Source of the DNA: an uncultured Bacilli bacterium
Lineage (GTDB): Bacteria > Bacillota_I > Bacilli_A > RF39 > UBA660
Assembly: GCA_910586295.1 (NCBI GenBank)
Contig: CAJUGE010000090.1
Span: 1-62,217 of the forward strand
Length of the DNA: 62,217 nt
Direction of reading: 5' to 3'
Numbering within the stretch: the first letter of the stretch is position 1; every line of letters begins with the position of its first letter. Position numbers and translations under genes: made by a program. Below the pieces are notes generated by a model. That model saw only the letters and a list, made by a program, of their open reading frames with translations, ran no database searches and was not told where the DNA came from. Of this stretch, positions 38,671 to 61,426 are shown in pieces.

Positions 38671-38730
38671 TTACAAAATAATTGCTTATGGTATAATATG
38701 ATACAAAATCAAATTATAAAAGGAGAAAAA

Positions 38731-41037
38731 ATGAAGAATTATAAAACGTTTTATGAGAAGTTTAATTGTTCTAAGTCATTAGTTGACTTAGCAATAAGGC
38801 TTTTATCAGAGAATTATATAAAAATAATATACTTAAAACATAGCGAAAGCCTAATTTCGGAAGAAAGTGTAGATTTAACACCATGTGATCTATCATGCTA
38901 TTACTTAGCATTATCAAAAACTAATGATATTGTAGAATTTCTAGAAGGAGAAAATGTAGATGAAGAAAAAGCAAAAATATTATTAAATGATGGAGAAAAA
39001 CTAGAAGAATTAAAAAAGTTATATAGGGAAAAACATAAAAAAGCAAGAGAATATAAAAGTTTCTTTTCAAACTTTAAAGAACCAGAATATCTAGTTAGAT
39101 TAGCAATTATGATGACACCTGATACTTATAAAGAGACGCTATATAAAAAATATGGACAAAATCTTACTGATACAACTAGCAAATTAGAATTAACTCTAAA
39201 TGACACTAAAAAGATAAGTACTAGATTTATAAATATAATCAAAACAATATTAGAATTTTTAAAATCTAAAAATTTAAGTGAACAAGAAGTGGAATTAATA
39301 TTATCAGATAAGGAAAAACTGAAAGCTTTAATAGAAGAATTTAAATATTCAAAAAAGAAAACAAGAAGAATATTTTCGTTATTTACAGAAAATGAATCAA
39401 TAATTAGACTTTCTTTAACATTTTTAACATATGAACAACAAGAATTTTTAAAATCCATAATAGGAATAGATTATAATGATTATATAACGTTAAAGAGTAA
39501 GAAAGAAGAAAAACAATTAAAAATAACTAAAAGTAGAATTGAAACTATATTAAAATACTTAAAATCATTTGAAATAACTGAGGAAATAGCAGAGAGTTTT
39601 CTAGAAGGAAAAAATTTAAGTGAATATATAAAGCTAAAAATTAATTTTCGTCCTAACATAAGTTTTTATAATTCTTTAGAATATCTAGAAATTGAAGAAA
39701 AATTTTTTTCTATAAATAAAATGCCTATGTTATATAGTGACTTAGCAAGAATTAATATAACACCTAATGATGTATCACTTTTGTTAGAAAATGAAGAAGC
39801 CTTAAAACTTGTAGAAAAAGAATGTGAAAAAATAATAAAGTCTAATTTACCGTTATCAGGACCTTCAAAAAGTTTTTATAGCAAGTTTAACGAAAATAAA
39901 ATATTAGTATTACTTGCTTCAAGATTACTAAAAGAGAAAGAAAAAAATATATTGTACAAAAAGTATGATAAAAACTTAAGCAGCCCACTTCCTAGAAGAT
40001 TAAGTAATAACGAAAAAGGCTATTTATATAATGTGATTATTCCTCATATGAAAAAGATATTAGAATTCTTAAACAATATTAATTTATCTTTAAAACAAGT
40101 GGCATATCTTTTGAGCCCTATTGGTAAAGAAGACTTAGAACTTTTAAAATCCAAATACTATAGTACAAAAAATAGAAAAGCTTCTAGAAAAGCTTCTAAT
40201 AATATATTAATTGGTTTATTAGATATAATTAAAAAAACAGAATATTTAGTAAGACTCGCGATTTTATTCTTACCTGAAGAGTATAGAAATGTAATATTTC
40301 AAAAATATGATAAAGATTTAAATAAAATACCTAACAATAAATTATCTGAGCAAGTTAAAAATAAGATTAGTTATGCCATTGTCTTAATGAAAAGTATAAT
40401 AGAATATCTAGAAAATAAAGATATAACAGAAGAAAACTATTTATATTTAATAAGTGAAGAAGGAAAAGAAGACTTAGAAAAATTAAAGAATGAATACTAC
40501 AAATTAAAAATTTCTAAATCATATATTATGGGAAATTGTAAGCGATACAAAAGTTTTTTCTCTTATTTTAATTGTCCTAAACACATTACAAAATTTGCAG
40601 TTTTATTCTTAGAAGAAAAATATAAGAATTTATTATACAAAAAGTATGATAAAGATTTGGAAAACATAAAACTTAAGGAAGATGTTTCTAATGTAGATAC
40701 TTCTACAATCTATAATTTAGTAATACCTAAAATACAAGAAATAATAGATTTTTTAGATAAGGAAAATATTAGTGATAAACATATTTGTTATTTATGTAGT
40801 GAAAAAGGAACAGAAGATTTGAGAACTTTAATAAAAATGTATAACACTAAGAGAAGAATTAAAAGGTATAAAAAAGTAATTTTTCCTTCTTCAAAAAATT
40901 ATTCGGATGAAGAAAAGATATTAATACTTTTACAAAAATATGAAGGAAACATAAATATAGGAATGCTTAGTGAAATACTTAATATTAATAAAACTGAGGT
41001 ATTTGATACTTTTGTAACATATAAATTAAAACAATGA
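38731..41037 (+). CDS. Repeat protein built from 6-7 tandem modules of about 105-115 aa, each resembling a sigma-70 region-4-type HTH; function unknown
   Basis: Recurring module: YKSFFSNFKEPEYLVRLAIMMTPDTYKETLYKKYGQNL ... ILEFLKSKNLSEQEVELILS..EKLKAL. Module starts fall near aa 15, 119, 224, (321), 391, 503 and 617 of the tracked ORF. ATG 38731 has the SD aaaggaga. Confidence 0.6.
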   Translation: MKNYKTFYEKFNCSKSLVDLAIRLLSENYIKIIYLKHSESLISEESVDLTPCDLSCYYLALSKTNDIVEFLEGENVDEEKAKILLNDGEKLEELKKLYREKHKKAREYKSFFSNFKEPEYLVRLAIMMTPDTYKETLYKKYGQNLTDTTSKLELTLNDTKKISTRFINIIKTILEFLKSKNLSEQEVELILSDKEKLKALIEEFKYSKKKTRRIFSLFTENESIIRLSLTFLTYEQQEFLKSIIGIDYNDYITLKSKKEEKQLKITKSRIETILKYLKSFEITEEIAESFLEGKNLSEYIKLKINFRPNISFYNSLEYLEIEEKFFSINKMPMLYSDLARINITPNDVSLLLENEEALKLVEKECEKIIKSNLPLSGPSKSFYSKFNENKILVLLASRLLKEKEKNILYKKYDKNLSSPLPRRLSNNEKGYLYNVIIPHMKKILEFLNNINLSLKQVAYLLSPIGKEDLELLKSKYYSTKNRKASRKASNNILIGLLDIIKKTEYLVRLAILFLPEEYRNVIFQKYDKDLNKIPNNKLSEQVKNKISYAIVLMKSIIEYLENKDITEENYLYLISEEGKEDLEKLKNEYYKLKISKSYIMGNCKRYKSFFSYFNCPKHITKFAVLFLEEKYKNLLYKKYDKDLENIKLKEDVSNVDTSTIYNLVIPKIQEIIDFLDKENISDKHICYLCSEKGTEDLRTLIKMYNTKRRIKRYKKVIFPSSKNYSDEEKILILLQKYEGNINIGMLSEILNINKTEVFDTFVTYKLKQ

Positions 41038-43701: not shown

Positions 43702-43785
43702 GAGGTTGCCAAAAAGCAATCTTTTTGATTTAAGTAATTCTTAGTGATGAGACTTCTATATTAATAAATATTAGAACAAAAATAT

Positions 43786-43814
43786 TTGCATTTATTAATT
43801 ATTGGTTATATAAT
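43786..43814 (+). promoter_or_regulatory. Candidate promoter of the paralog array
   Basis: TTGCAT (43786-91), 17-nt spacer, TATAAT (43809-14). The SD gggggg lies ahead of ATG 43841. Confidence 0.45.
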
Positions 43815-43840
43815 AAAATTCCAAGTACAGGGGGGATAAT

Positions 43841-45502
43841 ATGTTAGAAGAAAGAGAACTGCAAACAAAAATTTTGATGGTAACAAAAACTTTAGAGTAT
43901 ATTGAAGAACTGGGATTTAATTTAGAAAAAGAGAAAAGTAAACTAGATAAGATATTAAATGGTACATTTAGTGAAAATGGTAAGATATATAAGTTCAGTA
44001 GTTTAAAAAAGACAATAGAGTTAGAAAAACTTTTAAAAGACTTAAAAAGGTTTGATGAATATTTTAAATTGCTAAATGAATTAGAGTTTATAAAAAGAGC
44101 GCTTACACAAGAAAAATTATCTGATAAATATATATTTAATATAATAGAATTTATAAAAAGACTAAGGACTTGTAGAGTTATCTTAGACGATACTCAAAAG
44201 GAAAAGTTGCATGAAATATATATAACTTTATACAATATTATTTTAGTAGAGATACTTAATAGTGAAGATTTTGACAGTAAAATATTAAGGCAAATGACAG
44301 AAGATAAGTTTGATGAGTATATGCTTAATGAAATTATTTTGGAAGAGATAAAAAGACTAGAAGATTATTCCTATTTAGAAATATCAAGTTATAATTTATT
44401 AAGAGATAATATATTATTCCTAAAATCTCAAGGAGTAAAGAATTTTGCTAGATTAGAAATTATGTCCAAACTTTTAGCGTGTATACATCCAGAAAAGGTC
44501 CGAGAAAGATTAAACGGTGATTTATCTGCATTATACGAGTCTATCAGTACTAACAATCAAAATATAAATATGAAGCTTACTTTACTAGATACGATATTAG
44601 AAAAATATAACTACATTAAGTCTAATATATCTAAGGAAAAGATGAACAAGACACTCTTATCGTTTTTACTTACATTTTCTATAAGTTTAGGTATAGGTGG
44701 TATGGGAGCAAAGGTAGCTAGTGACTTATCAAAACAAAAATTATATAAAACAGAAACTACAATATATAACAGCTTTACTGACTCAGTAACAACCACAGAA
44801 TCTTGGCAAACTGAACTTGAAAGAACATTCACTAGAAATAGGGTAGATTATTCTACACCGTATTGGAGCAAAACTAGAAAGAGTTATGTATTAAATATAG
44901 AAACATTTGACTTTACTGACCGTTATAGAGGAGAATCATATGAAGAATGTTTAAATAAATCATATATATCTAGTTTAAGTATAAATGATGAATATAAAGA
45001 AATATCTGAAGAAGAAGCACTAACTATTTTAGAAAATATTTCAACCGATTACTTGGTTTGGGCAAAAGAAATAGTTGACACAACACAAGACAAAAGTGAA
45101 TATATAGAAGAAATAAATAAAAATACACTTGTAACATTGTTAGCAGATTTATATGCGCTTTTGATTTTGGCTCTTTGGGTATTAGATAAAAAATATAAAG
45201 CAGGATTATATAGTAAAATTAAAGAGATGATAGAAGTAATAAAAACTTCTAAACTTACAAAGAAAGATTACAAATTTCTTTCTTTAGAATATGAAAAAGT
45301 ATTTAAAGAATATGAAGATTACATAAAAAATAATCAAGAATTAAATGAAATATACCAAAATACTAAAAGAGAAATGCTTAATACTCTGGGTGAAAGTTAT
45401 AAAGATGAGCAAGCTTTGGTGGATTTAATAGAAAAACTAGAAAGTAAACTTGATGAAATAAAACCAGAAGATATAAATTATACTAGAAAATTAGGAAGGT
45501 GA
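43841..45502 (+). CDS. Array paralog 1: two-TM hairpin membrane protein, unknown family
   Basis: Helical N-domain of about 270 aa. TM1 TLLSFLLTFSISLGIGGMGAKVA (about aa 271-293). Exposed domain of about 135 aa. TM2 LVTLLADLYALLILALWVL (about aa 430-448). Coiled-coil tail. Basic residues flank the cytoplasmic sides. Confidence 0.7.
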   Translation: MLEERELQTKILMVTKTLEYIEELGFNLEKEKSKLDKILNGTFSENGKIYKFSSLKKTIELEKLLKDLKRFDEYFKLLNELEFIKRALTQEKLSDKYIFNIIEFIKRLRTCRVILDDTQKEKLHEIYITLYNIILVEILNSEDFDSKILRQMTEDKFDEYMLNEIILEEIKRLEDYSYLEISSYNLLRDNILFLKSQGVKNFARLEIMSKLLACIHPEKVRERLNGDLSALYESISTNNQNINMKLTLLDTILEKYNYIKSNISKEKMNKTLLSFLLTFSISLGIGGMGAKVASDLSKQKLYKTETTIYNSFTDSVTTTESWQTELERTFTRNRVDYSTPYWSKTRKSYVLNIETFDFTDRYRGESYEECLNKSYISSLSINDEYKEISEEEALTILENISTDYLVWAKEIVDTTQDKSEYIEEINKNTLVTLLADLYALLILALWVLDKKYKAGLYSKIKEMIEVIKTSKLTKKDYKFLSLEYEKVFKEYEDYIKNNQELNEIYQNTKREMLNTLGESYKDEQALVDLIEKLESKLDEIKPEDINYTRKLGR

Positions 45503-45506
45503 ACTT

Positions 45507-47189
45507 ATGCAATTTGAAATGCCAATATTTAAAGGAATAAAAAGAAAGAAAAAAGAAGGATTTATTAGTGAATTATCAGACGAACTAGTAAACGTAGAAA
45601 TAATGATAAGTAATATAGAGAATAGTGAAATCTCTATAGATATAGAACAAGAGAAATTAGAATTAGATGAGCTAAGACAAGAAATTGATGCTAATTACAT
45701 TACTAGTGAAAAAGTAGGTACTTCTATAATAGGTGTTTATCAATCTATGACTGATAAATTAATGAATATAAAATCAAGAATAATAAAATATGAAAGTTTG
45801 ATATTATTAATGAATAAGGCTTATTACTTAGAAAATGCATGTAAAAGTGGAGAAGTTGCGAAAGATTTTAATTCATTTGTTTCACTATGTTTAGAGATAC
45901 TTACAGATTTGGATAAAATAAAAGTAAGTATTGTATCAAAATATAAAGATTCATACGAGAAAATATATAGAATAATTTATGAATTTATAAAAATAGAAAT
46001 ATCTCATACTTTAGAAAGTAAAGTTTTAGAAAGTTTAGTGAGTCAAAAAACAGCTGTTTATTATATTAATAATATAATGAGAGATGAAATAAACAATATA
46101 AAAGAGCGTACATTCAATAACCCTAAATTAATAAGTAGACTTGATATGCTTACAAATAAGAATACTTCTTCTAGCTTAGCAAGCGATATTGTTAGCAAAG
46201 ATGTCATATTTACGATAGTACTAATTACAAATGAAGAAGAAGTAATGAAATCATTAAACAGTAAAATGGATGGTATCAGAGTGCAATATAGTGAAAATTT
46301 AGAAGAGATTAATTCCTATTTATATTCTAATTCTGGTTCTGATGATCCTGTTGGTAAGATTGTACAAAGTAAAATAGATTTAGAACATCATAGGCAACAA
46401 TTAAAAGAAACAAATAAAGAATTAAAGAAAAAACTTATAGCACTTATTATTTCAACTACACTAGTAACAGCCATAGGTCTAAACTTGCCTTCTATAGGTA
46501 AACATTTTAATACTAAATATGTAACAACTACTGAAATTTATGAAACAGGAAAAGAGCCTATTTCATTATCTTCGTATGAAGAGAAAGCTAGTGATATAAA
46601 GAGAACATTAGATATTTATAGTGAAACGTATGAAGATTGGGGAAAAACTTATACAGACTATAAAAAATATGATGTTACAGATGTAATTATAGAAAGTGTG
46701 AGTGAAGAAGATTATCTATATATAGATGTTGATTCCTTTGGTTTAAAATCTTATGACTCAAGGCAAGAAAATGTTACAGAAGAATCAAAAGAAGTAAGAC
46801 AACTTACAGTAGTAAAACAAGACCATGTAAACGGGAGTATTTTAGATGAAGATGATTATAGAACTTTTCTTATAATTGCCTATTTAGTTCTTGCTTTTGA
46901 ATCAATATGGGAAACAATTGGCCCATTAAATAACTTTATAAAGTGTATAAAATTAATTAATGATGGTGATTCAAGAGCTACATTTGTAAATATATTTTAT
47001 GAAGAGTTAAGAAAACTAATTAAAGAGTGTGAAAAATATATAAAATCTAACAAAGATTTAGAAGCGGAATACTACAGTATTTATGATGAATTAAAGTACT
47101 TAACTACAGAAGAAATTGAAGATAAGTTAAAATCTTTAACTGTACAAAACAGTGAATATAAAAAAACTTTAAAGGCTTATAAGGAGTAG
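45507..47189 (+). CDS. Array paralog 2 (same family)
   Basis: 4-nt gap from paralog 1. KKKLIALIISTTLVTAIGL (TM1), KYVTTTEIYE, DYLYIDVDS, LTVVKQD, FLIIAYLVLAFESIWETIGPL (TM2). Confidence 0.7.
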   Translation: MQFEMPIFKGIKRKKKEGFISELSDELVNVEIMISNIENSEISIDIEQEKLELDELRQEIDANYITSEKVGTSIIGVYQSMTDKLMNIKSRIIKYESLILLMNKAYYLENACKSGEVAKDFNSFVSLCLEILTDLDKIKVSIVSKYKDSYEKIYRIIYEFIKIEISHTLESKVLESLVSQKTAVYYINNIMRDEINNIKERTFNNPKLISRLDMLTNKNTSSSLASDIVSKDVIFTIVLITNEEEVMKSLNSKMDGIRVQYSENLEEINSYLYSNSGSDDPVGKIVQSKIDLEHHRQQLKETNKELKKKLIALIISTTLVTAIGLNLPSIGKHFNTKYVTTTEIYETGKEPISLSSYEEKASDIKRTLDIYSETYEDWGKTYTDYKKYDVTDVIIESVSEEDYLYIDVDSFGLKSYDSRQENVTEESKEVRQLTVVKQDHVNGSILDEDDYRTFLIIAYLVLAFESIWETIGPLNNFIKCIKLINDGDSRATFVNIFYEELRKLIKECEKYIKSNKDLEAEYYSIYDELKYLTTEEIEDKLKSLTVQNSEYKKTLKAYKE

Positions 47190-47192
47190 AAT

Positions 47193-48689
47193 ATGTTTTT
47201 CAGAAAATTAACTGAATTTGGACAAAGAACGTCAAAGCTTAATGAAGTTAATAATTTACTAGACTATTTAAGTAGTCTAGGTTTTGACATGATAGAAAAA
47301 AGAAAAGAATTAAATAAGATATCTCCTTATAAACTAAACGAATTTATAGAGAGTTTAAACATAGAATATCTTGGAGTAATCGTTTCATCTAATTATTTAC
47401 ACAAAATGAATAATATCTCATCTGACTTTAGATTTGAATATAAGTTACAATATTTTGTAACTGTTTCAAAAGAATTTCTAGAAAAAATAGACTTAACAAA
47501 TTTAGAATTAAATGATAAATGTGAAGAATACATAAACAGTGCTATTAAACTTTTATATGTTGTTATAAAATCAGAAATATTCTATACTTTTAAAAGCGAA
47601 ATATTAGAACTAGTAAAAACAAATAATAAAATATCTAACATTATATCTTCGTTTATAGAAAAGGAAGTAGAAGAATTGTTTAGAAGTTCATTTGTTAGTA
47701 ATATGCTTGCATTAAAGAAACTGGAAGAACTAATTAACAATAAAGATTATCTTGACTTAGAAGTTCTTATTAACCTTTACATGTGTACTAATCCAGAAGA
47801 AATAAACCATGGTATGAAAGAAGATCTTAAAAGAAAAGAAACGGAGTTACTAACTAGGTTGGATAGTATTACAAGTGAATTAAGTAGAAGCATTATAATC
47901 AAAAATAATCAAGAAGAACTAGCGCATCTTGCATACAAAATAAGATGTCTTGTAAGAGAAAAGCAAGATAAAGTATCACATATAGTATTAAGTTCTTTAT
48001 TATTATTAGGTTCTTGTTATATTGTACCTAAGGCAGCTACACCTTTATCTACGGAGTACTTAATTAATGAGTCTATATATACAGTTGATGAAAATGGAAA
48101 TGAAGTATTGGTTAATGAACAATCTTACTATGATAAAATACTAAGGGGAGATAAAGTTACATTGAGAGTTTATGACAAAACAGAAAACCATATAGATTAT
48201 AGAGTTACAGAAGTATATGAAGATGTAAAGGTGTTAATAGAAGAAGAACTAAAGTCAAGAAATGTTATAGACTCTGGAGAGTATAAAGAAGTGGTATTTA
48301 AAGACATAGACACAGGTGATACTAGAATTGATGAATCATCTAAATTAAGTATATGTATACAAGGATATATTTTATCTTTATTATTTCCTGGTGGAGGCTT
48401 AATTTACAATATAGCAGAATACCTCAAATGCAAAGAAGGAATAAACTATCAAAAAAGAAGACAAGAAGATTCTATTAATTTGATTGAAAAAACAGTTGAT
48501 GAACTATTAGATAGACTTAGCGAGAACAAAGAAATAGAAAATAAATTTTATCAAATTCTAGATAGCTTGAATTTACCAATTGATAAAGAAAATTTTATAA
48601 GTGAAATCGAAGCGTTAATAGAAAGAAGAAAAAATATTGAAGCTAAATTAAATGAAGAAGTATATTTAGCAAAAGTATATAGAAAGTAG
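47193..48689 (+). CDS. Array paralog 3 (same family, shortest)
   Basis: 3-nt gap. LLDYLSSLGFDM N-motif. TM1 IVLSSLLLLGSCYIV. TM2 LSICIQGYILSLLFPGGGLIYNIA. Confidence 0.7.
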   Translation: MFFRKLTEFGQRTSKLNEVNNLLDYLSSLGFDMIEKRKELNKISPYKLNEFIESLNIEYLGVIVSSNYLHKMNNISSDFRFEYKLQYFVTVSKEFLEKIDLTNLELNDKCEEYINSAIKLLYVVIKSEIFYTFKSEILELVKTNNKISNIISSFIEKEVEELFRSSFVSNMLALKKLEELINNKDYLDLEVLINLYMCTNPEEINHGMKEDLKRKETELLTRLDSITSELSRSIIIKNNQEELAHLAYKIRCLVREKQDKVSHIVLSSLLLLGSCYIVPKAATPLSTEYLINESIYTVDENGNEVLVNEQSYYDKILRGDKVTLRVYDKTENHIDYRVTEVYEDVKVLIEEELKSRNVIDSGEYKEVVFKDIDTGDTRIDESSKLSICIQGYILSLLFPGGGLIYNIAEYLKCKEGINYQKRRQEDSINLIEKTVDELLDRLSENKEIENKFYQILDSLNLPIDKENFISEIEALIERRKNIEAKLNEEVYLAKVYRK

Positions 48690-48697
48690 TGATATAA

Positions 48698-50362
48698 ATG
48701 ACTAATGAAAGTCTAAATTTAGAAAGTAAAATACTAAAATTAGAAGGAATAATGGATGAGTTAGAAAGTATAGGTATTAATACTGCAGATAAGCGCGCTA
48801 CTCTTAATAGTACCATAAATAAGAAAGTAATTCTTGGAAATACTGCTTATGAAGAAATGTCTGAAGCTAATAAGTTACAGCTTTTAGAAAAAGTTACATC
48901 AGAGTTATTAGAATATAGTGATTTACTTAATATTTCTAGAATTATAAACTTTTTGACACTTGCTTCAGATGAATCTGCAGAAGAAAAAGTAGAAGAAACG
49001 ATGAAACTTATTAATTTATTAAGAGTTAATAGAGAAAAACTATCTACAAATCATAAATTATTAAGAAGAGTTTATAGTTCTATTTATGATGTCATAAAAA
49101 TGGAATATACTCTATATTTAAGAAGTGATATATTAGAAACTATTCTAGATAGTAAAGAAGATGTAGTAAATATAGAAGCTTTAGTAGAAAAAGATATAAT
49201 AGATTTAAAGAAGAATACATTTGTTGAAAGTAAAGAAGCTCTTGATTTACTATTAACAGAAGAAGCAAGAATCAAATTAAAAGAAATTAATCCGTCTTTA
49301 GTAACTGAAAAAATAATACTATTGCTTGTAATATGTACCAATAAAGAAAGAATGAGTGAGAACTTTAAAATGGAATTAGAATTCATTCTAAGAAGATTAT
49401 CGACTAACAGTAAAGCTATATCTAATAATACATTCTATGACCAAAAGTTTAGATTAACAAAGAGACTTTTAAATATTAAAAAAATTAGAGAAGACTATAA
49501 AAAGAAATTAATAGCTTTAGTTCTAAGTTTTAGCTTATTTACTGGAGTTTCTCTAACTTCTAACCTACTTATAAAAAGATTATGCACTAAAGAACTATTT
49601 AATACAACTAAAGAAACAATAGAATTAATAAACGGAGAATATTATAGAAATACTGATAACTATTATGGTACTAAAGTAAGTGAAGATGAAAAGATTGTTT
49701 TAAGATTGTATAATCAGTTATATACAAATACTAGAAACTTCACTGAATACGATTTAAAAAATGCTATTAAAGATACAGCAGAAAACTATTTGAATATTGA
49801 TTTAAATAGTGGTGGGGTTAGTGAAAAATTTGTTTTGAATGATGTTAAGAATTATGAAGATGATGAATTTTACTTAGAATTTTCTGAAGGCTATAGAGAA
49901 TTAACATTAATAGAACAAGACTTAAACGACGGTTATACAGACTACAATGAAAAGTTCCATTATATATCTCTTGCAATAATATATCTCGTATTACTTATAA
50001 GTGCATTTACGCCTATAGGACCCATTAAAAAGTTAAGAGAGATATTGGAGTTAAAGAAAGATTACAAAAGTAACATTAAAGACAGAGATAAAACTATAAA
50101 AATTATAGAAGAATATATTGATTCTTGCAAGCTTAAAGTAGAAGAAAATAAGTTACTAAAAGAAAAGATTAGAATAATGATTTCTAGTGGAATATTAGAA
50201 CTTGAAGAAGAAACACTTAAAGGAAATATAAAAAGATTATTAGATGAATTGGAACAAGGAACTGTAAAAAATTTAGATGAATTTCTAAGAGCAGTAGTGT
50301 CTAGAGAACATAGTTCACTAACAAATGAAGAAAATTATAAGAAGCTAAAAATAAAGGAGTAA
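48698..50362 (+). CDS. Array paralog 4 (same family)
   Basis: 8-nt gap. KKKLIALVLSFSLFTGVSL (TM1), NYLNIDLNSGG, LTLIEQD, ISLAIIYLVLLISAFTPIGPI (TM2). Confidence 0.7.
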   Translation: MTNESLNLESKILKLEGIMDELESIGINTADKRATLNSTINKKVILGNTAYEEMSEANKLQLLEKVTSELLEYSDLLNISRIINFLTLASDESAEEKVEETMKLINLLRVNREKLSTNHKLLRRVYSSIYDVIKMEYTLYLRSDILETILDSKEDVVNIEALVEKDIIDLKKNTFVESKEALDLLLTEEARIKLKEINPSLVTEKIILLLVICTNKERMSENFKMELEFILRRLSTNSKAISNNTFYDQKFRLTKRLLNIKKIREDYKKKLIALVLSFSLFTGVSLTSNLLIKRLCTKELFNTTKETIELINGEYYRNTDNYYGTKVSEDEKIVLRLYNQLYTNTRNFTEYDLKNAIKDTAENYLNIDLNSGGVSEKFVLNDVKNYEDDEFYLEFSEGYRELTLIEQDLNDGYTDYNEKFHYISLAIIYLVLLISAFTPIGPIKKLREILELKKDYKSNIKDRDKTIKIIEEYIDSCKLKVEENKLLKEKIRIMISSGILELEEETLKGNIKRLLDELEQGTVKNLDEFLRAVVSREHSSLTNEENYKKLKIKE

Positions 50363-50365
50363 GCT

Positions 50366-51961
50366 ATGCAGGAATATATGAATAGAGAAATGCAAGATGA
50401 AAGAGTAAATAAATTAATGGAATTTATGAGTATCTTAGAATCTACTGGAATTAATTTATCTGAACAAAGAGAATATTTAACTACTATATTAAACAGATGT
50501 AATGTTAATAGTAATACAAAAGAAGCATTAGAAATATTTGCTTATGAATTAGGAACTTTAACGGAAAATTTATCTTCTTATAAAAATTTAGTAAAGATTA
50601 TCAAAATGATAGAAGAACTAAAAGAACTGAATTACTCAGAAGAAAAAGAGGAACAGGTTCAAAGACTAATAGAACTATTAGAAGAATATAGAAGTAGTGT
50701 AGAAGTAGAATATCCTAAAAATATTATAGAGAGTGCTTTAAAATGTATATTAGATGAAATTAAAGAAGAAATAAAAAATCATTTAGATAGTAAGACATTT
50801 GATGTTGTTTCTAAAGATGAATTTTATACTAAATACTTTAATGAACTTATAAAAGAAGAAATAGAAGAACTAAAATCATTGTCATTCTTATGCTACCCTA
50901 AAATGTTGGAAACTTTGCAAGAGGAAATGAATAGATGTAAAAATCAATTATTTGATAAAAGACTAATAACTTCTCTAATCGCTTGCCAAGAAAAAGAAGA
51001 ATTAATGAATGCTACAAAACCTTATTGTCGTTCTAAAAGATATACACTAGATGCAAATAATTATAGGATAAAGTCATTAAGTGATAATGATAGTCTATAT
51101 GCTACGTTTGAATCTTTAAAAAAATATAAAGAATTAATATTTAAAGCTAAAAAACGAGTACCATCTTTATTATTAACTGGTATTTTACTTTCTGGTATTT
51201 CTTTAGGAGTACCACAATTTGCAAAAAAATTCAGTATAAAATCTTCATATAAAACAACTACAGAGAAATATAGTTTAGACTCAGATGTTCATAATGAAAG
51301 CCCCTTAGAAAGTTTTGAAGAGTTACTAAATGAGAATGGACTTCAAGTAACTATGACTGTACAAGGTGAATTAACAAAAATAAATCATAATCATTATCAT
51401 AGAACAGAAACAGTATATGATGTAACATCTAAGGGTGTAGAAGAACCTTATTATTATCTTTATTTAGATTTAGAAAATAATTCTGAAATAACTAAGATAT
51501 CTGAAACCACTTTAGAATGTACTGATGAAGAGTATACTGATGAAATAAGAAATCTTACAATTATTAAGCAAGATTTGGAAAATAAAGAAGACTATACTGA
51601 CGAAGAATTATATAAAGAACTTTGTAGTTTATCTTATATAACAATACTAGCATCTTCTTTAATTCCAGGTTTTCCAATATTTAATTTAATTAGTATAACG
51701 CTAGATTTAATAGAAGCACATCGAAACAAAGAGCATTTTAAAAAATATTTAAACTTACTTAGTGAAGAATTAGAAGAGTGTCATAAGAAAATCTTAGAAA
51801 ATGAAGAAATTAGAGATTATTATAACTTTTTATTAAATAGTGGTATAATGAATAAAAGAGATGATATAGTAGAAATGCTATTGAGCGAATTAGTTTATTA
51901 TCAGAAAAAGATGGAATCTAGAGAAAAAGAAGCATTAGAGTTAAAGAAAATAAAAATGTAA
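50366..51961 (+). CDS. Array paralog 5 (same family)
   Basis: 3-nt gap. TM1 SLLLTGILLSGISLGV, YKTTTEKY, YYLYLDLENNS, LTIIKQD, TM2 ITILASSLIPGFPIFNLISI. Confidence 0.7.
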   Translation: MQEYMNREMQDERVNKLMEFMSILESTGINLSEQREYLTTILNRCNVNSNTKEALEIFAYELGTLTENLSSYKNLVKIIKMIEELKELNYSEEKEEQVQRLIELLEEYRSSVEVEYPKNIIESALKCILDEIKEEIKNHLDSKTFDVVSKDEFYTKYFNELIKEEIEELKSLSFLCYPKMLETLQEEMNRCKNQLFDKRLITSLIACQEKEELMNATKPYCRSKRYTLDANNYRIKSLSDNDSLYATFESLKKYKELIFKAKKRVPSLLLTGILLSGISLGVPQFAKKFSIKSSYKTTTEKYSLDSDVHNESPLESFEELLNENGLQVTMTVQGELTKINHNHYHRTETVYDVTSKGVEEPYYYLYLDLENNSEITKISETTLECTDEEYTDEIRNLTIIKQDLENKEDYTDEELYKELCSLSYITILASSLIPGFPIFNLISITLDLIEAHRNKEHFKKYLNLLSEELEECHKKILENEEIRDYYNFLLNSGIMNKRDDIVEMLLSELVYYQKKMESREKEALELKKIKM

Positions 51962-51972
51962 GTGGAGGATTT

Positions 51973-53589
51973 ATGGAAGGACAAGTATTAAATAGCTTAG
52001 AAGCTTTAATAAAGGAAGAAACACCTTTAAGACTATATGAAGCTAAAAAGATGGAAATAGATAATTTATTAAAAGAAATAAAATATAATGGATATGATGT
52101 ATCAGACTTAGAGAATGAATATCATAGTATAGATATTTCAAATGATATAACTATAGATAGGATTTTGTGTAAGTTAAAGGTTATAAGAATGTATTCACAT
52201 AAAATAGTGGTACTAAAATATATTGCTACTTCTTTAGAAAGTGATACCTATGATTTAATAGATTTAAAACATAGATACTTTGAAGCGTTGTCTTATATGA
52301 GAAACAGTGAATTATTTATTACTCAAAGAGAAGAAAGTACAAGGCATTTACTATATGAAGTGGGGTATAAGCTAATAGAAAAGGAAATAATACACACAAG
52401 TAGAAGCGACATATTAAATGAAATATTAACTAATGATTATGATACTATGAATCTAAATCTTATAATTATAGATATTTTAGAAAAAATAAATGGAATAACT
52501 TATGCAAATCCAAAAAGTTTAAAATCACTTATTGATTTAATATCAAGAAAAAAGGAACAAGAAGACTTCAAGAGTTATGTTGACATAGACATAATAACAG
52601 GTATAATTATTGTTACCAATTCTCAAGAATTATTAATTAACCTTGAACCATCTACTAAAGATGCACTTAATAATCTCGAAAGAAATGTGAATAGTTTACA
52701 GTTTTATCAGGGCTTTTATAACACAGCGGGATTTGTAAAACGCGAAAATGAAAAACGTGTAAAATACATAAAGAAAATTAAAGTGAAAACTGTATCTGGA
52801 CTTCTTGCACTAGGCCTTTTATTTGGTTTATATAATTTTTGGCTGTCTAAAAGTATAGAAAAAGATTCAATGCTCTATAATGTTGAGACAACAGTATATG
52901 AAGATTCTTTAGAACCTGTGACTACATATGAAGTTGGTAGGCATGAAAAAGATACATTAGTTTTAGAAGTGTATAAAAATGAAGTGAATGATAAAGGACA
53001 AACTGTTAGATATAAATATACATATGATGAAAAGAAATTAAAGAATATTAATATAGATGAGCTTGATTATCAAACTATTGATTTAACAGGAATAAAAGAA
53101 AGTAAAAAGGAGGTTTATGAAGAAAACCCTACAGAAACAGAAGAAAAAGTAATATTTAGGATAATAACTGCAGATAAAGAAGAAGTTTTGAGTATAGATG
53201 AAGATTATAAACAAATGAGAATTATTTCTCTTTGGGCTACATGGATATTACTCTCTTTTATACCTAATGGATTTGGTAATTCCATAATTTGCATAATAAT
53301 AAACTTAATAAAATATTTAAAATCAAACAAACCTTTTAAAGCGCTAAAAGAACAAGTAGATAAAGAATTAGTAGAAATAACTACCGCAATATCAAAAAGT
53401 GAATCAGCCTTAGAAGAATATGACAGATTACTTAAATTATTTGAAATGTTAAGCGAGGTAGAAGAAGTAGACAATCAAGAATTATTAGATTACTATAAAA
53501 AAGAATTAAATAAATATAAAGAAGAATTATCTTATAACATCAAAGGAGTAGAAGGACATAAAAAGGAATTAAAGTTAGGTGGTGCTTAA
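51973..53589 (+). CDS. Array paralog 6 (same family)
   Basis: 11-nt gap. TM1 [39 protein letters not shown]2 region [28 protein letters not shown]. Confidence 0.7.
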
Positions 53590-53591
53590 GA

Positions 53592-54638
53592 ATGGAAGAA
53601 AAATATAATTTAGATTATTATGACTATGATTTACCAGAAGAACTAATTGCGCAGACACCATTAAAAAATAGAAGCAGTTCAAAATTATTAGTTTTAAATA
53701 AAAATACTGGTGAATTAAAAGATGATACATTTGAAAATATTACTTCTTATTTAAAGAGTGGAGATGTTCTTGTACTTAATGATACAAAAGTTATACCTGC
53801 AAGATTGATTGGTACAAAAGAAACTACAAATGCTACAATAGAGTTGTTACTTCTTAAGAATGTAGAGAACGACACTTGGGAATGTTTAGCAAAGCCGGCT
53901 AAAAGACTTCATGAAAATACTATTATTTCATTTGGTAATGGTGAATTGAAAGCTAAAGTTATAAAGAAAAAAGAAGAAGGATTAGTAGAAGTAGAACTTC
54001 TTTATGATGGAATACTATATGAAGTATTAGATAATCTTGGTTCTATGCCACTTCCACCTTATATTCATGAATGCTTAGAAGACAAAGATAGGTATCAGAC
54101 AGTATATGCAAAAAATCTTGGAAGTGCTGCCGCACCTACTGCTGGGCTTCATTTTACAGATGATTTGTTAAATAAACTAAAAGAAAATGGAATAACTATA
54201 ACTTATGTAACATTACATGTAGGATTAGGCACTTTTAGACCAGTAAATACTGATAATATACTTAACCATGATATGCATAGTGAGACTTATATGATGAGTG
54301 AATATACAGCAGACATTCTAAATAAAGCAAAAGAAGAAAACAGAAGAATAATCGCAGTAGGAACAACTAGCACAAGAACATTAGAAAGTATAATAACTAA
54401 ACATGGTAAATTCACTGAATGTATGGAAGACACTAACATATTTATATATCCAGGATATAAATTTAAAGCAGTATCTGCTCTTATTACTAATTTTCACTTA
54501 CCAAAAAGTACACTGGTCATGTTAGTAAGTGCGCTTTCTACTAGAGATTACATACTAAATGCATATAATCATGCAATAAAGAATAAATATAGATTTTTCT
54601 CATTTGGAGATGCTATGTTTATAACAGACGAATTATAG
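53592..54638 (+). CDS. queA: S-adenosylmethionine:tRNA ribosyltransferase-isomerase
   Basis: [37 protein letters not shown] and VGTTSTR are QueA signatures. Confidence 0.92.
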
Positions 54639-54647
54639 GAGAAAAAT

Positions 54648-56276
54648 ATGAATAAAGCAGAATTAGAGATAAAAAATATGTTAAGAGAATTAAAAAAGAT
54701 TGGAATAGATACACTAGAATATGAACAAGAATTAGAAAGTTTAATAAGTTTAAACACAAACTCTAATCATCTTTCTGAGCAAGCAATGCTAAAAACTGGC
54801 AAGACACTTAGAATTACAGAGTTAAATGCAAAAATAAGTGTATATTCATCTTATTTAGAACTTTATAAAATATTAGAATACTTAGAAAAAGGAGAACCTA
54901 CTTTAGAAGAAAGAATAGAATTGTGCATGCATATATTGCTTGTAATAGGAAGCAAAGATGAAAAAATAATGTCTTCTAATCAATTACTAAAACGTGCATA
55001 CACTTTAATCTTTGATACCATAAAACAAGAATTAAAAGAAACATTATATAGTAAAATATTTGATATAGTAGTGACTAGTGATTACGATAAATTATATTTG
55101 GGAGAAATAGTAAGAGAAGAAATAGAAAGGATAAAAGAAAGTACATTTGTAATTAATTTAGACTACTTAGATTCTCTTATTAAAGAAGAAATAAAATCTA
55201 ATATGTCTTCTCCTAGTAATTATGTAACACTTTCTTTAATAACTAAAATTGTGAAATGTGAGAGTGGTGACGAATTAAAAGAAACTATTGATAGAACACT
55301 ACAAGATACTTTCCCAAAGTTAATTGATAGAAATGCTATGCTTAATGAATCTTTAAATGGGGATGTTATTAAAAGGAAGTTTCTAGACACTATAAGTGAG
55401 CTTTTAGATGATATAGAAAATTATAAAATAGATATTATAGGAAGAATCATATCTGGAGTTTTAACTACATCTTTAATTTTTGGTGTTGGTATAGGTGGAA
55501 CAAGACAATTGAAAAAATGGTTGACAAAAGAATACTATGAAACAACAAAAGTGACAACAGTGATGGATGAAACTATACACGAACCTAGAGTTGATACATA
55601 CTATGACACACTAGTAGAAGAAAAAGATAGATTATTATTAGAAGTGGATGAGAAAGCTTTGCTTAAAGGTACACTAGACGAGCCATATAGAAGATTATAT
55701 AGTATCTATTATTTAAAAGATGTTATAAAGGAAACAGACCTTGAATATTTGACTATAGATTTAGAAAGTCCAGGAATTGTACTTAAAAGGAAATACTATA
55801 CAAGAGAAGAGGCAAATGAATACTCTGGAGAAATAAAAAAACTATATAGGATAACTCAAGGTGAAACCCCAGAATATAGTGAATATTCTAAAGGATGGCA
55901 TAGATTCTTATGTACAGTATTATATGTAGCATTATTTGCTTCTAGTTTTATACCATACTTTCCTATAAATGACATAATAAAAATACTAGATGATTTAAAA
56001 AAATCTGAAGAAAAAGAAGATCTTTATAATAGTCTTGGCTCAGAACTTAAAGACCTTTTAAATGAATGTATGAGAGTTATTAATAAAAGTGATGAATTAA
56101 TAAGTATTTATAATAAAGTACTTGAGAGTGGAGTACTAGAAAAAGATACAGATGATTTAACCCAAGACATTAATAACTTAATCTTCCAAATCAAAGCAAA
56201 AGAAGAGATGATTTACAAAAGCCAAACAGAGTTAAGTGAGTTGGAAGCACATTTTTTAAGATTGAATAAAGACTAA
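54648..56276 (+). CDS. Array paralog 7 (same family), downstream of queA
   Basis: 9-nt gap after queA. MLRELKKIGIDTLEYEQELES N-motif. TM1 IISGVLTTSLIFGVGIGG, YYETTKVTTV, LEYLTIDLESPG, TM2 LCTVLYVALFASSFIPYFPI. Confidence 0.7.
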   Translation: MNKAELEIKNMLRELKKIGIDTLEYEQELESLISLNTNSNHLSEQAMLKTGKTLRITELNAKISVYSSYLELYKILEYLEKGEPTLEERIELCMHILLVIGSKDEKIMSSNQLLKRAYTLIFDTIKQELKETLYSKIFDIVVTSDYDKLYLGEIVREEIERIKESTFVINLDYLDSLIKEEIKSNMSSPSNYVTLSLITKIVKCESGDELKETIDRTLQDTFPKLIDRNAMLNESLNGDVIKRKFLDTISELLDDIENYKIDIIGRIISGVLTTSLIFGVGIGGTRQLKKWLTKEYYETTKVTTVMDETIHEPRVDTYYDTLVEEKDRLLLEVDEKALLKGTLDEPYRRLYSIYYLKDVIKETDLEYLTIDLESPGIVLKRKYYTREEANEYSGEIKKLYRITQGETPEYSEYSKGWHRFLCTVLYVALFASSFIPYFPINDIIKILDDLKKSEEKEDLYNSLGSELKDLLNECMRVINKSDELISIYNKVLESGVLEKDTDDLTQDINNLIFQIKAKEEMIYKSQTELSELEAHFLRLNKD

Positions 56277-56309
56277 AAATATGTGTTATGATCCGACTTA
56301 TTGGAGAAA

Positions 56310-56429
56310 ATGTTAGTGAAATGTAGAAATAGAATAATATTAGCTTTAACTGGTACATTATTACTTTGTGGATGTGGTTCAGTAGTTGAAGGACAAGAAA
56401 AAAGAGAAAGAAACTATAAAAGTATTTGA
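56310..56429 (+). CDS. Possible 39-aa lipoprotein (not in the ORF track)
   Basis: SD ggag 4 nt before the ATG. MLVKCRNRIILALTGTLLLCGCGS has a signal peptide and a lipobox-like LLLCG. A hairpin and T-run follow. Confidence 0.3.
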   Translation: MLVKCRNRIILALTGTLLLCGCGSVVEGQEKRERNYKSI

Positions 56430-56489
56430 AAAAGGGAAACATATAAAAAAGCCTCGCCAATATTGACGGGGTTTTAACATGACTAAAAA

Positions 56490-56699
56490 TTATTCTTTAG
56501 CAGTTTTCTCAAAAGGCATTAATAGTAAACCTATATTTATAATACCAGCAAGGCCTACAAAAGTATAAACAACTTTAGTAAATAAAGTATCTACACCAAA
56601 AATAGCTTCAACTATATTAAAGTTAAATAAACCTACAAGTCCCCAGTTTAAAGCTCCTATAATAGTTAAACCTAGTGCTATCTTTTGTACTGTTTGCAT
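56490..56699 (-). CDS. DUF378-family small membrane protein
   Basis: IALGLTIIGALNWGLVGLFNFNIVEAIFG is the typical DUF378 signature. Confidence 0.7.
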   Translation of the reverse strand: MQTVQKIALGLTIIGALNWGLVGLFNFNIVEAIFGVDTLFTKVVYTFVGLAGIINIGLLLMPFEKTAKE

Positions 56700-56806
56700 A
56701 TATACCTCCTCCCAGTTATTATTAGTTTAATCTTTTTTGACCATTTTATTCATAAAGTAATTAAACTCTAATATAATTAAGTGTAAATAATTAAAGGAGG
56801 GTTATT

Positions 56807-57790
56807 TTGAAAAAGTTTTTAGTGGTACTCATTTCTTTACTACTATTGGTAGGATGTGGTAAAAAAGAAAGTAATATAGTAGAAAACTTTCAAAACACAG
56901 TTAATAAACTAAACAATTATCACTTAACAGGAGAAATGGAATTAGTAAACAATGAAGAAAAATATAACTATAAAGTCGATGTAGTATACAAAAAAGGAAA
57001 TTATTACAAAGTTTCATTAGTAAATAAAGAAAATGAGCATGAACAAATAATACTTAAGAATGAGGAAGGAGTATACATAGTTACACCAAGTCTAAATAAG
57101 AGTTTTAAATTCCAAAGTGAATGGCCAACCAATAGCAGTCAATCATATATACTAGAAACATTAGTAAATGATTTATTAGAAGATTCAGAAAGAAGTGTAA
57201 AAGAAGACAATGATACATATATAGTAACAAGTAAGGTAAACTATCCAAATAATAGTGAACTAACTAACCAAGTAATAACATTTAATGACAAATATTTACC
57301 TACAAAAGTAGTCGTAAATAATTCTAAAGGACTAGCACAAATAACAATGAACATAACAAATATAGATACTAAAAGTAAATTTGATAAAGAATACTTTGCA
57401 CTAAATAACAGTGTATGTAAAGACTGTAAGACTGAAACAACTGGAAAAGAACTAGAAGACATAGTATATCCAATGTACTTACCTAGTGGAACTACTTATA
57501 GTGGAGAAGAGACTATAAAAGAAGATGGAAGTGAGAGAGTAATTCTTACTTACACTGGTCTTAAACCATTTATACTAATTGAAGAAGCAAGTAATGCATC
57601 TAAAGAACATGAAACAACTGCTGTAAGTGGAGAAGTAGTACAATATGGTAACGTAGTAGGAGTACTAACTGAGACTTCCTTAAATTGGAGTACAGCAGGT
57701 AGAGAATACTACATAATTGGAGATAGTCTTTCAAAGGAAGAAATTCTTCAAATAGCAAGTAGTACTGCAACAGTAGCATTAACTAAATAA
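56807..57790 (+). CDS. Lipoprotein (LolA-fold/DUF4367-like, tentative)
   Basis: TTG start with the SD aaaggaggg. Lipobox LLLVGC. The protein looks beta-rich. Confidence 0.55.
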   Translation: MKKFLVVLISLLLLVGCGKKESNIVENFQNTVNKLNNYHLTGEMELVNNEEKYNYKVDVVYKKGNYYKVSLVNKENEHEQIILKNEEGVYIVTPSLNKSFKFQSEWPTNSSQSYILETLVNDLLEDSERSVKEDNDTYIVTSKVNYPNNSELTNQVITFNDKYLPTKVVVNNSKGLAQITMNITNIDTKSKFDKEYFALNNSVCKDCKTETTGKELEDIVYPMYLPSGTTYSGEETIKEDGSERVILTYTGLKPFILIEEASNASKEHETTAVSGEVVQYGNVVGVLTETSLNWSTAGREYYIIGDSLSKEEILQIASSTATVALTK

Positions 57791-60343: not shown

Positions 60344-60392
60344 TTTCTTTTTTGTGTATTTTTTAGCACGTGATTTTTTAAGTACAAAATCA

Positions 60393-60421
60393 TTGACAAT
60401 CAATACTTTTTATGGTACAAT
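60393..60421 (+). promoter_or_regulatory. Sigma-A promoter (extended -10)
   Basis: TTGACA (60393-98), 17-nt spacer, TGgTACAAT. Confidence 0.6.
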
Positions 60422-60450
60422 TATATCTGTTAATGGGGGTAAGGTAATTA

Positions 60451-60872
60451 TGAAAGGGAGATTTTTATTAGATTATCTAGATGAAAATGACTTTAAAAAA
60501 CTAGAAAGAAGTTTAAAAAAATATAATATGATGGCATATAAAAAGCTTATGTTTGACTATTATCCAAGTTTAAGAAGAGGAGAATTTTTAGGAGAGCTTG
60601 TTTCTATAAACAAGCATGAACAAACAGAAAACTATGAATTACAATTGCCAACAGATGATTTGTTTATAAAAGTATATGGGAAAGTTAAGCTTAGTTACAC
60701 TGTATATAAAAAGCAAAACGTTGTTATGCTTACAGGATTAGAACCAAGAAGCATATTAATGGATGGTCATAAATCTGAATTAACTGCATATAAAGGTATT
60801 ATGATAAGTAAACAAAATGCAGCGAAAGAAATGTTCAAAATAGATTTATTATCTAGACTTGAGGACAAATAA
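60451..60872 (+). CDS. Hypothetical protein
   Basis: ATG 60451 downstream of the promoter, with the SD gggggtaagg. The tracked GTG at 60354 lies upstream of the promoter. Confidence 0.45.
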
Positions 60873-60886
60873 GGAGTATATAAACT

Positions 60887-61426
60887 ATGAATTATCAGAA
60901 GAAAAAAGATCAACTTATCAAGTTAAGAAATGAAATTCTTAAAGAATATCAAGCTTTATACGACAAAACAATACAGTATGCTGAAACTGAAATGGCTGAT
61001 GAATCAGTGGTAGGAAGAGATATTTTTGGTAATAAAGTTACAAGTTTAATTGTTGCTTTGCTATATGTTAATAATCCAGATAATAAAGAAGTTATATCTA
61101 AACTCAGGGAAGACATTGTTCAAAATAAATTAGGAAGAAAAGAAGAAAATGTAAAAGAGTCAAAAATTAGAGACGAAATACTAAAGGATTATCAAGAACT
61201 ATTAATTAAGTCTTTGCGTTATGGTCATTATGCATCAGAATTATCAAATATGAAGCTAGTATTAAGCGAAATAGCAGATTTTCAAAGATTTATATCTGAT
61301 GAAGAAGATAGTATGAAAATCACCAGTTTAATAGCAAGTTTATTGTATGTTGAACATCCTAATGATTCTGAGGTAGTTGCAACTTTGAGAAGAGATATAG
61401 CTATCAATAAATATGGAAGAAAGTAA
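60887..61426 (+). CDS. Hypothetical protein with an internal tandem duplication
   Basis: The two halves share R(N/D)EILK(E/D)YQ ... (V/I)TSLI(V/A)(A/S)LLYV(N/E)(N/H)P(D/N) ... EV(I/V) ... LR(E/R)DI ... NK(L/Y)GRK. Confidence 0.5.
   Translation: MNYQKKKDQLIKLRNEILKEYQALYDKTIQYAETEMADESVVGRDIFGNKVTSLIVALLYVNNPDNKEVISKLREDIVQNKLGRKEENVKESKIRDEILKDYQELLIKSLRYGHYASELSNMKLVLSEIADFQRFISDEEDSMKITSLIASLLYVEHPNDSEVVATLRRDIAINKYGRK

Follow-up and report, generated by a model that had tools for sequence, protein, structure and literature searches.

What might a bacterium gain from seven ancient copies of one membrane protein, encoded side by side? The question is raised by a block of about 12 kb on the + strand of a 62,217-nucleotide (nt) contig from an uncultured Bacilli bacterium; this whole stretch is called the window below. 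The block contains seven co-oriented paralogous genes, named A–G in their order along the window, which encode proteins of 498–560 amino acids (aa) and are arranged around the housekeeping gene queA. An earlier annotation made from the letters alone (the sequence-only reading) had described them as an operon-like array of two-transmembrane (TM) proteins and had supposed that they form a hetero-oligomeric envelope complex rather than serving as alternative variants. We find that the proteins belong to a genuinely undescribed family and that the genes appear built to be made together. As a tentative model, we propose that their products would be co-expressed but individually dispensable subunits of an oligomeric transducer or scaffold.

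Seven diverged paralogs and queA form a block of eight genes

All seven open reading frames (ORFs) of the sequence-only reading were recovered at exactly the positions it gave, on the + strand (Table 1). Its account of their spacing needed one correction. From A to F the genes are separated by 4, 3, 8, 3 and 11 nt, within the 2–11 nt that had been claimed, whereas F and G lie 1058 nt apart. This interval is occupied by a complete queA, left unnamed in the earlier account, which begins 2 nt after F and ends 9 nt before G. The block is therefore one of eight tightly spaced genes, not seven.

An all-against-all BLASTP comparison aligned the paralogs collinearly over most of their length at 21–28% identity. 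D and G are the closest pair (1e-34), followed by E and G (5e-28), and A and F are the most divergent. A seven-way MAFFT alignment reproduced the landmarks from which strongly diverged, collinear homologs had been proposed: an N-terminal L..LG(I/F)D helix, the motif Y..IY..IK.E......S and Y.TT..Y after TM1, together with YL.ID, LT..QD and EC...I..N.EL, all common to A–G. When a profile hidden Markov model (HMM) of the family was run on the 62-kb window, it matched these seven ORFs only.

Gene spacing and SD-like motifs support joint production

The layout of the block supports the view that the A–G genes are built to be made together, as had been suggested earlier. They lie on one strand with gaps of 2–11 nt, and most of them have a Shine–Dalgarno (SD)-like motif within the 3′ end of the preceding gene, although that of D is weak or unclear. 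No promoter gap accompanies the embedded queA. Translational coupling across the block is probable. The spacing suggests a single operon, running from the enolase terminator and promoter region through A-B-C-D-E-F-queA-G.

A predicted terminator-like hairpin just behind the enolase gene (eno) separates eno from the array. It was read from the sequence and is absent from the list of the consensus scan. The single promoter named by the sequence-only reading (43786–43814) does exist as a TTTGCA-18-TATAAT sequence, followed by the SD sequence GGGGGG at 43830–43835, but in DNA so rich in AT, sequences of this kind are about as frequent as expected by chance (106 sites found in the promoter scan versus 105.9 expected) and are uninformative. 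The terminator scan gave no convincing internal + strand terminator in the array. The hairpin and T-run that had been placed after the last genes are also real, but with only four T on the + strand they read better as the terminator of a convergent − strand gene encoding a DUF378 protein; the hairpin is probably bidirectional and stronger for that gene. Between G and this hairpin lies a 39-codon ORF with an SD-like motif and the N-terminus MLVKCRNRIILALTGTLLLCGCG…, which was not called as a gene in conspecific contigs. Its membership of the operon is uncertain.

As the earlier annotation had noted, the array lacks machinery for phase variation. It contains no DNA-level repeats or invertible segments, only short imperfect AT-rich matches and one weak tandem repeat, and no homopolymer of eight or more. 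Among the ORFs scanned, no recombinase, ATPase or secretion gene was found within 10 kb. Because the housekeeping gene queA is locked at the same slot in four lineages, alternative or phase-variable expression is hard to reconcile with the layout, and a single, constitutively used, tightly spaced block is well supported.

A prophage or an integrative and conjugative element, an origin that the sequence-only reading had also considered, was not found. The flanks are core genes, no integrase or phage genes flank the block, and the guanine-plus-cytosine (GC) content of the array (25–26%) equals that of its flanks (23–34% elsewhere in the window). The family gave no match in INPHARED phages or PLSDB plasmids (tblastn) or in a scan of IMG/VR. 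Our data support the conclusion that nothing points to phase variation, a prophage, an integrative and conjugative element or a plasmid.

The proteins belong to an undescribed family

Against Pfam-A 2025, NCBIfam r20, PHROGs v4 and PADLOC 2.0, A–G produced nothing at or near the curated cut-offs, and in a Pfam scan of 85 members one by one, no family was matched by more than two members. Searching PDB sequences by hmmsearch with 7- and 140-sequence profiles reached only designed helical bundles (best E 0.024). Structural comparison with PDB by Foldseek gave nothing significant (best E 0.21 for full-length D and 0.71 for its outer domain). Query-normalised template-modelling (TM) scores among the 50 matches listed were at most 0.17 for the full length and 0.28 for the outer domain, the strands of which matched only barrel proteins, and weakly. 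A Wzc chain appeared only at E 3.7 with probability 0.01, and the Wzz domain (PF02706) of the polysaccharide co-polymerases (Wzz/CapA), which have it between two TM helices, had no match in A–G or the 85 members. Literature searches for this family returned nothing relevant. The earlier statement that the proteins match no recognisable family has thus held up in every one of these checks, and we consider the family genuinely undescribed, the novelty of its folds being relative to PDB only.

Two apparent matches were rejected. The weak PHROG match of paralog B to a tape-measure protein (E 1.5e-4) is a coiled-coil artefact, and the Foldseek matches to the viral structures of BFVD are long-helix noise, with TM-scores of at most 0.23 and root-mean-square deviations of 18–44 Å among those with E <0.01.

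The family is nevertheless sizeable. When 1.84 billion cluster representatives were searched exhaustively with HMMER, 418 members were recovered at E ≤1e-3, including 282 at E ≤1e-10. The best 150 of the 418 representatives are nearly all 500–585 aa long, with the profile covering almost their whole length, and none of the family clusters looked up carried a name. A word-indexed search with the 7- and 140-sequence alignments found only the cluster of D itself and two orthologs.

Predicted architecture and conserved sites

Hydropathy analysis showed two hydrophobic segments in each of A–G, in line with the two-TM proteins described before. Basic residues follow TM2, and a K/R-rich stretch precedes TM1 in A–F; the claim that this stretch is present in all seven does not extend to G, which has one or two K/R in the 15 residues before its TM1. 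All seven proteins are predicted to have two TM helices and cytoplasmic N- and C-termini, with a cytoplasmic N-terminal part of 260–309 aa, an outer loop of 106–147 aa and a cytoplasmic tail of 82–113 aa. The outer loop is acidic, containing 19–24% D+E versus 9–17% K+R.

Paralog D was modelled with AlphaFold2 using a 140-sequence family alignment (predicted local distance difference test (pLDDT), 91.3; predicted TM-score (pTM), 0.68). In the model, residues 1–195 form an all-helical N-domain, followed by a helical hairpin (204–241 and 244–296), the second helix of which is continuous with TM1. Two long strands (297–311 and 314–325) leave TM1 and another (399–416) enters TM2 (418–436), beyond which the chain kinks into a 55-residue helix (442–496) and two more helices. 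Modelled on its own, the outer domain reached a pLDDT of 93.8 and a pTM of 0.83. The models indicate a beta-rich, Tyr-rich outer domain of about 125 aa, with end strands fused directly to TM1 and TM2, and a C-terminal tail with a long coiled coil.

Conservation across 140 members peaks at E136 (99%) and S143 (96%). With Y126, Y130, I133 and K134 conserved at 80–89%, the helix motif Y126..Y130..I133-K134.E136 ranges from 80 to 99%, and the only near-invariant residues of the family (Y..Y..IK.E......S) lie in the predicted helical cytoplasmic domain of about 200 aa. In the outer domain, Y301, Y308, Y351 and Y364 are conserved at 79–89% and R346 at 74%. TM1 positions 273, 277, 283 and 287 are small (G/A/S/T) in 66–91% of members and form a conserved small-residue face. 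TM2 is plainly hydrophobic, and neither TM helix holds a conserved polar or charged residue.

Arrays of related lineages keep slot order but vary in size

Other contigs carrying the family were compared (designated by L-numbers; Table 1). Members are tandem on every inspected contig long enough to show a neighbouring gene, and the arrays range from 3 to at least 10 members. The host contigs have a GC content of 20–26%. In L001, L006 and L007, queA lies between the F and G orthologs as it does in the window; B–E are missing in L007. On L004, which starts within queA and leaves the upstream side unseen, tgt follows shortly after queA and the members. The array seems to have grown within an ancestral queA–tgt housekeeping locus. 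In a second clade, the arrays are flanked by the gene for RNase J on one side and pgk–spo0A on the other.

In a neighbour-joining tree, each slot (A, B, C, D, E, F, G and H/I) forms its own clade across lineages, which implies that the duplications predate these lineages and that the order has been conserved. The members of L041, L042 and L033 form a separate, independently expanded clade. Between orthologs, the outer domain is 55% identical versus 48–49% for the cytoplasmic parts; judged by these alignments, the outer domain is not the fastest-evolving part and does not behave as an exposed variable antigen.

Representative genomes of GTDB scanned with D gave no match, and the host species is seemingly absent from that collection. 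A QueA query of the same representatives returned 24 loci, none with a family member beside queA, the closest belonging to a rabbit-gut Bacilli metagenome-assembled genome with 70% QueA identity. These 24 loci without members indicate that the family is restricted to a narrow, uncultured clade.

Mosaic and truncated alleles within the species

The window was compared with three contigs from other samples (L035, L036 and L037), which are 99.2–100% identical to it in eno, queA, thrS and the FemAB gene. Within A, B, E and F, tracts of 300–900 nt are 7–15% divergent between the conspecific contigs, against a background of about 0.3%. These tracts are located at about 44900–45200 (A), 46700–47300 (B), 50300–52100 (E) and 52100–53300 (F), differ by strain and look like mosaic alleles imported by recombination.

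All three conspecific contigs, each from a different sample, carry a nonsense codon in G (E24*, G70T; L035:16020, L036 and L037). This form of G is called as a 496-aa protein starting from Met47, and it occurs in more contigs of its cluster than the intact 542-aa form. An apparent ratio of non-synonymous to synonymous substitution rates (dN/dS) of 1.26 for G is an alignment artefact of the in-frame stop; direct comparison gives nine nucleotide differences. For C, the ortholog in two independent samples (L001:1092–2613 and L002:2–1406) consists of a 342-aa and a 179-aa ORF that overlap, which would represent either a frameshifted pseudogene or a programmed shift.

What the array might do

The model we prefer, as a tentative proposal, is that A–G are co-expressed and specialised subunits, each dispensable by itself, of a new oligomeric transducer or scaffold that spans the membrane. 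The subunits would associate laterally via the small-residue face of TM1 and the stalk helices, and the oligomers could be homomeric or mixed and flexible in composition. Such an assembly would couple wall-proximal events, either ligand binding or strain acting on the beta domain, to the cytoplasmic domain that carries the conserved E/S site. It would act as a receptor and transducer or as an envelope scaffold, and would be neither an enzyme nor a variable antigen nor a transporter of known components. Both oligomerisation and coupling are functions that we infer. Individual dispensability is indicated by the E24* allele of G, the split C ortholog, the loss of B–E in L007 and array sizes from 3 to at least 10, and specialisation by the separate clade of each slot across lineages.

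Several observations weigh against this proposal. The proteins evolve fast, orthologs being 43–55% identical where QueA is 83–84% identical. The mosaic intraspecific tracts have a dN/dS of 0.3–0.6 with raised dS, versus 0.07–0.23 in flanking genes, a pattern that would also fit a conflict-driven repertoire. The small-residue face of TM1 could serve intramolecular TM1–TM2 packing instead of oligomerisation. Moreover, it is the modelled architecture, and only the architecture, that suggests a transducer or scaffold, with no identifiable output domain, ligand or partner gene, and co-transcription is likewise read only from gene spacing.

The hetero-oligomer supposed by the sequence-only reading fares differently depending on how strictly it is taken. 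Slot-wise orthology and tight coupling favour joint, non-redundant use of the paralogs, but variable copy number, lost slots, independent expansions, null alleles and mosaics speak against an obligate fixed complex. In its strict form, a fixed envelope machine would contain one copy of each paralog in a defined ring or complex and would require every subunit. Tight spacing makes stoichiometric co-expression plausible, the order and one-to-one orthology of slots A–G (and H and I) are kept across lineages with 76–84% QueA identity, the conserved sites and the TM1 face occur in all paralogs, and the weak, barrel-only Foldseek matches are compatible with sheets completed between subunits. The best precedent for paralogs of one operon forming one hetero-oligomer is provided by the mycobacterial Mce operons, in which six paralogous subunits, MceA–F, form a hetero-hexamer. 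Like A–G, their genes are tandem, on the same strand, tightly spaced and old, and encode membrane-anchored proteins with long helical regions. However, the Mce proteins have one TM helix rather than two, the MCE domain (PF02470) has no match in A–G or the 85 members, and no YrbE-type permease or ATPase (Mkl) genes lie beside the array or in the related loci L006, L007, L041 and L042. Nor is the copy number of the array fixed: the window has 7 members, L006 has 10, L007 has F–I and a fragment resembling A, L042 has 3, and L041, whose type of array is an independent expansion, has at least 9. Conserved order alone does not imply a hetero-oligomer either, as the staphylococcal ssl and lpl clusters illustrate. 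They combine ancient paralogs, fixed order and slot-wise orthology with allelic diversity and occasional pseudogenes or copy-number changes; unlike the mostly cytoplasmic two-pass proteins of this housekeeping operon, ssl and lpl products are secreted proteins or lipoproteins encoded in genomic islands. With the E24* form of G in three conspecific contigs, a C ortholog frameshifted in two samples and mosaic polymorphism in A, B, E and F, we regard the fixed machine as quite unlikely. Less likely again is a mixed ring of 3–10 interchangeable paralogs with new folds, acting as a Gram-positive envelope conduit or gate of a previously unknown kind. Here the long outer strands of neighbouring subunits would pair to build a barrel-like collar, with a bundle of small-residue TM1 helices below it and a cytoplasmic coiled-coil funnel beneath.

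A stronger competitor of the transducer or scaffold model, possible although still on the unlikely side, is a battery of independent receptors or sensors, each paralog homo-oligomeric and responding to its own extracytoplasmic cue, for which the operon would only co-express the repertoire. Hydropathy, charge and the AlphaFold2 model all give the TM1–outer domain–TM2 topology of chemoreceptors and sensor kinases, and A–G share with two-TM receptors (methyl-accepting chemotaxis proteins, sensor kinases and P2X/ASIC) the cytoplasmic termini, an outer domain that passes directly into the TM helices and, after TM2, a long coiled coil in the cytoplasm. The conserved cytoplasmic E/S site makes every paralog look individually competent, and copy-number plasticity, independent expansions and losses of single members fit a repertoire. 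On the other hand, a cytoplasmic domain of about 265 aa replaces the usual short N-terminus, the outer fold is unmatched in PDB, and none of the signalling domains HAMP, MCPsignal, HisKA, HATPase or GGDEF was among the 25 most-matched Pfam families of the 85 members. No conserved response regulator or partner was found nearby in the window, L007, L033 or L041, and neither orthologs nor paralogs diverge most in their outer domains. If the array were instead the product of an arms race, its members would protect the membrane or act as decoys against bacteriocins, contact-dependent or type VII secretion system (T7SS) toxins or phage DNA injection. Diverged paralogs in tandem are a typical feature of immunity loci. 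The rapid evolution compared with housekeeping genes, the 7–15% divergent tracts of A, B, E and F with their raised dN/dS, the alleles interrupted by stop codons or frameshifts and the differing array sizes all agree with such a history. We nevertheless consider such a conflict-driven repertoire unlikely. The array, with queA inside it, sits at a conserved place in the core chromosome rather than in a variable island; a scan of the larger window ORFs, which left out several smaller ones, gave no toxin, T7SS or LXG gene, and there was no defence gene among the scanned neighbours and no PADLOC match; the searches of phage, IMG/VR and plasmid collections gave no family member; dN/dS stays below 1 overall and the outer domain is not where variation concentrates; and proteins of this size with a strongly conserved cytoplasmic site are unlike known immunity proteins. 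Least probable of all the explanations considered is a two-TM ion or solute channel resembling CorA, MscL or P2X, with TM1 lining the pore, the stalks forming a funnel and the acidic outer domain a vestibule. Its attraction lies in the continuous stalk–TM1 helix, the small-residue TM1 face, the plainly hydrophobic TM2 and the acidic outer loop, and hetero-oligomeric channels made from paralogs are common in eukaryotes. CorA and ZntB also begin with a large cytoplasmic domain and have a very long stalk helix that runs on into TM1, followed by a second TM helix, but CorA has neither an outer domain (about 125 aa in A–G) nor a coiled coil at its C-terminus. Conversely, A–G have no GMN or other selectivity motif (the consensus after TM1 reads K..L....Y.TT..Y), no conserved polar or charged TM residue, and no match to CorA, MscL or any other channel family or fold in Pfam or Foldseek. 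A small genome encoding seven to ten paralogous channels would have no known precedent.

Whichever explanation applies, hundreds of sequence clusters with two confidently predicted folds that are unmatched in PDB, taking up about 12 kb of a probably small genome and placed within a housekeeping operon of uncultured gut Bacilli, represent substantial unexplored envelope biology. Mixed oligomers, if real, would constitute a new bacterial machine built from interchangeable paralogs; independent receptors would constitute a new transmembrane signalling module without a known output domain. The family deserves a profile-HMM entry and is a tractable target for multimer prediction, heterologous expression and cryoEM.

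Genomic setting of the array

The locus is part of the core chromosome of a walled, very low-GC (about 26%) Bacilli bacterium. Genes in the window include hrcA-dnaK-dnaJ and those for MurT/GatD, a Dlt-type MBOAT protein, HisRS, PolC and PolA; the long housekeeping ORFs are intact, showing that genetic code 11 is in use. Around the array, the gene order is FemAB, enolase, array, two lipoproteins, ThrRS.

Table 1. Features of the array and its surroundings in the window, and gene order on related contigs
Feature	Position	Strand	Details
Terminator-like hairpin and T-run	43704–43727	+	GGTTGC-CAAAAA-GCAATC-TTTTT, just after the enolase stop codon
Promoter-like TTTGCA-18-TATAAT	43785–43814	+	Consensus match only
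Paralog A	43841–45502	+	553 aa; TM1 272–290, TM2 430–448; family HMM E 6e-90
Paralog B	45507–47189	+	560 aa; TM1 310–328, TM2 454–472; family HMM E 5e-95
Paralog C	47193–48689	+	498 aa; TM1 261–279, TM2 386–404; shortest outer domain; family HMM E 2e-56
Paralog D (modelled)	48698–50362	+	554 aa; TM1 274–292, outer domain ~293–422, TM2 423–441
Paralog E	50366–51961	+	531 aa; family HMM E 4e-89
Paralog F	51973–53589	+	538 aa; family HMM E 6e-68
queA (S-adenosylmethionine:tRNA ribosyltransferase-isomerase)	53592–54638	+	Pfam Queuosine_synth PF02547, E 1.9e-135
Paralog G	54648–56276	+	542 aa; codon 24 at 54717 is a stop in conspecific contigs
Mini-ORF, 39 codons	56310–56429	+	Directly 3′ of G; lipoprotein-like N-terminus (…LLLCGCG…)
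Hairpin with flanking A-run and T-run	~56452–56475		After the mini-ORF; scan lists a − strand terminator at 56468–56455
Contig L006			A–F, queA, G, then three more; 10 members
Contig L001			Order as in L006; C ortholog split
Contig L007			Fragment of 258 aa resembling A, followed by F, queA, G, H, I and LepA
Contig L004			queA, one member, one degenerate 352-aa member, tgt
Contig L033			P-type ATPase, RNase J, one split member, two intact members
Contig L042			RNase J, three members, PGK, Spo0A
Contig L041			Nine or more members, followed by PGK and Spo0A

Just one mobile-element gene was seen in the window. It encodes an IS66-family transposase (DDE_Tnp_IS66; 33388–34881, − strand) and is located between polC and polA, 9 kb upstream of the array. 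Upstream of the FemAB gene, a 779-aa ORF (38698–41037) has no Pfam, PHROG or PADLOC match. At the same position, the conspecific contigs L035 and L036 have a gene of only 438 aa, showing that this locus varies between strains.

Downstream of the array, the gene for the small DUF378 membrane protein (56478–56700, − strand) and that for a 327-aa YdcC-like lipoprotein (56807–57790) occupy the place where L001, L006 and L007 have the extra paralogs H, I and J, which suggests a deletion or replacement of H, I and J in the window species. Beyond thrS, two adjoining ORFs of 172 and 179 aa (60354–61426) have no Pfam match and are followed by a gene for a 116-aa zinc-ribbon protein.

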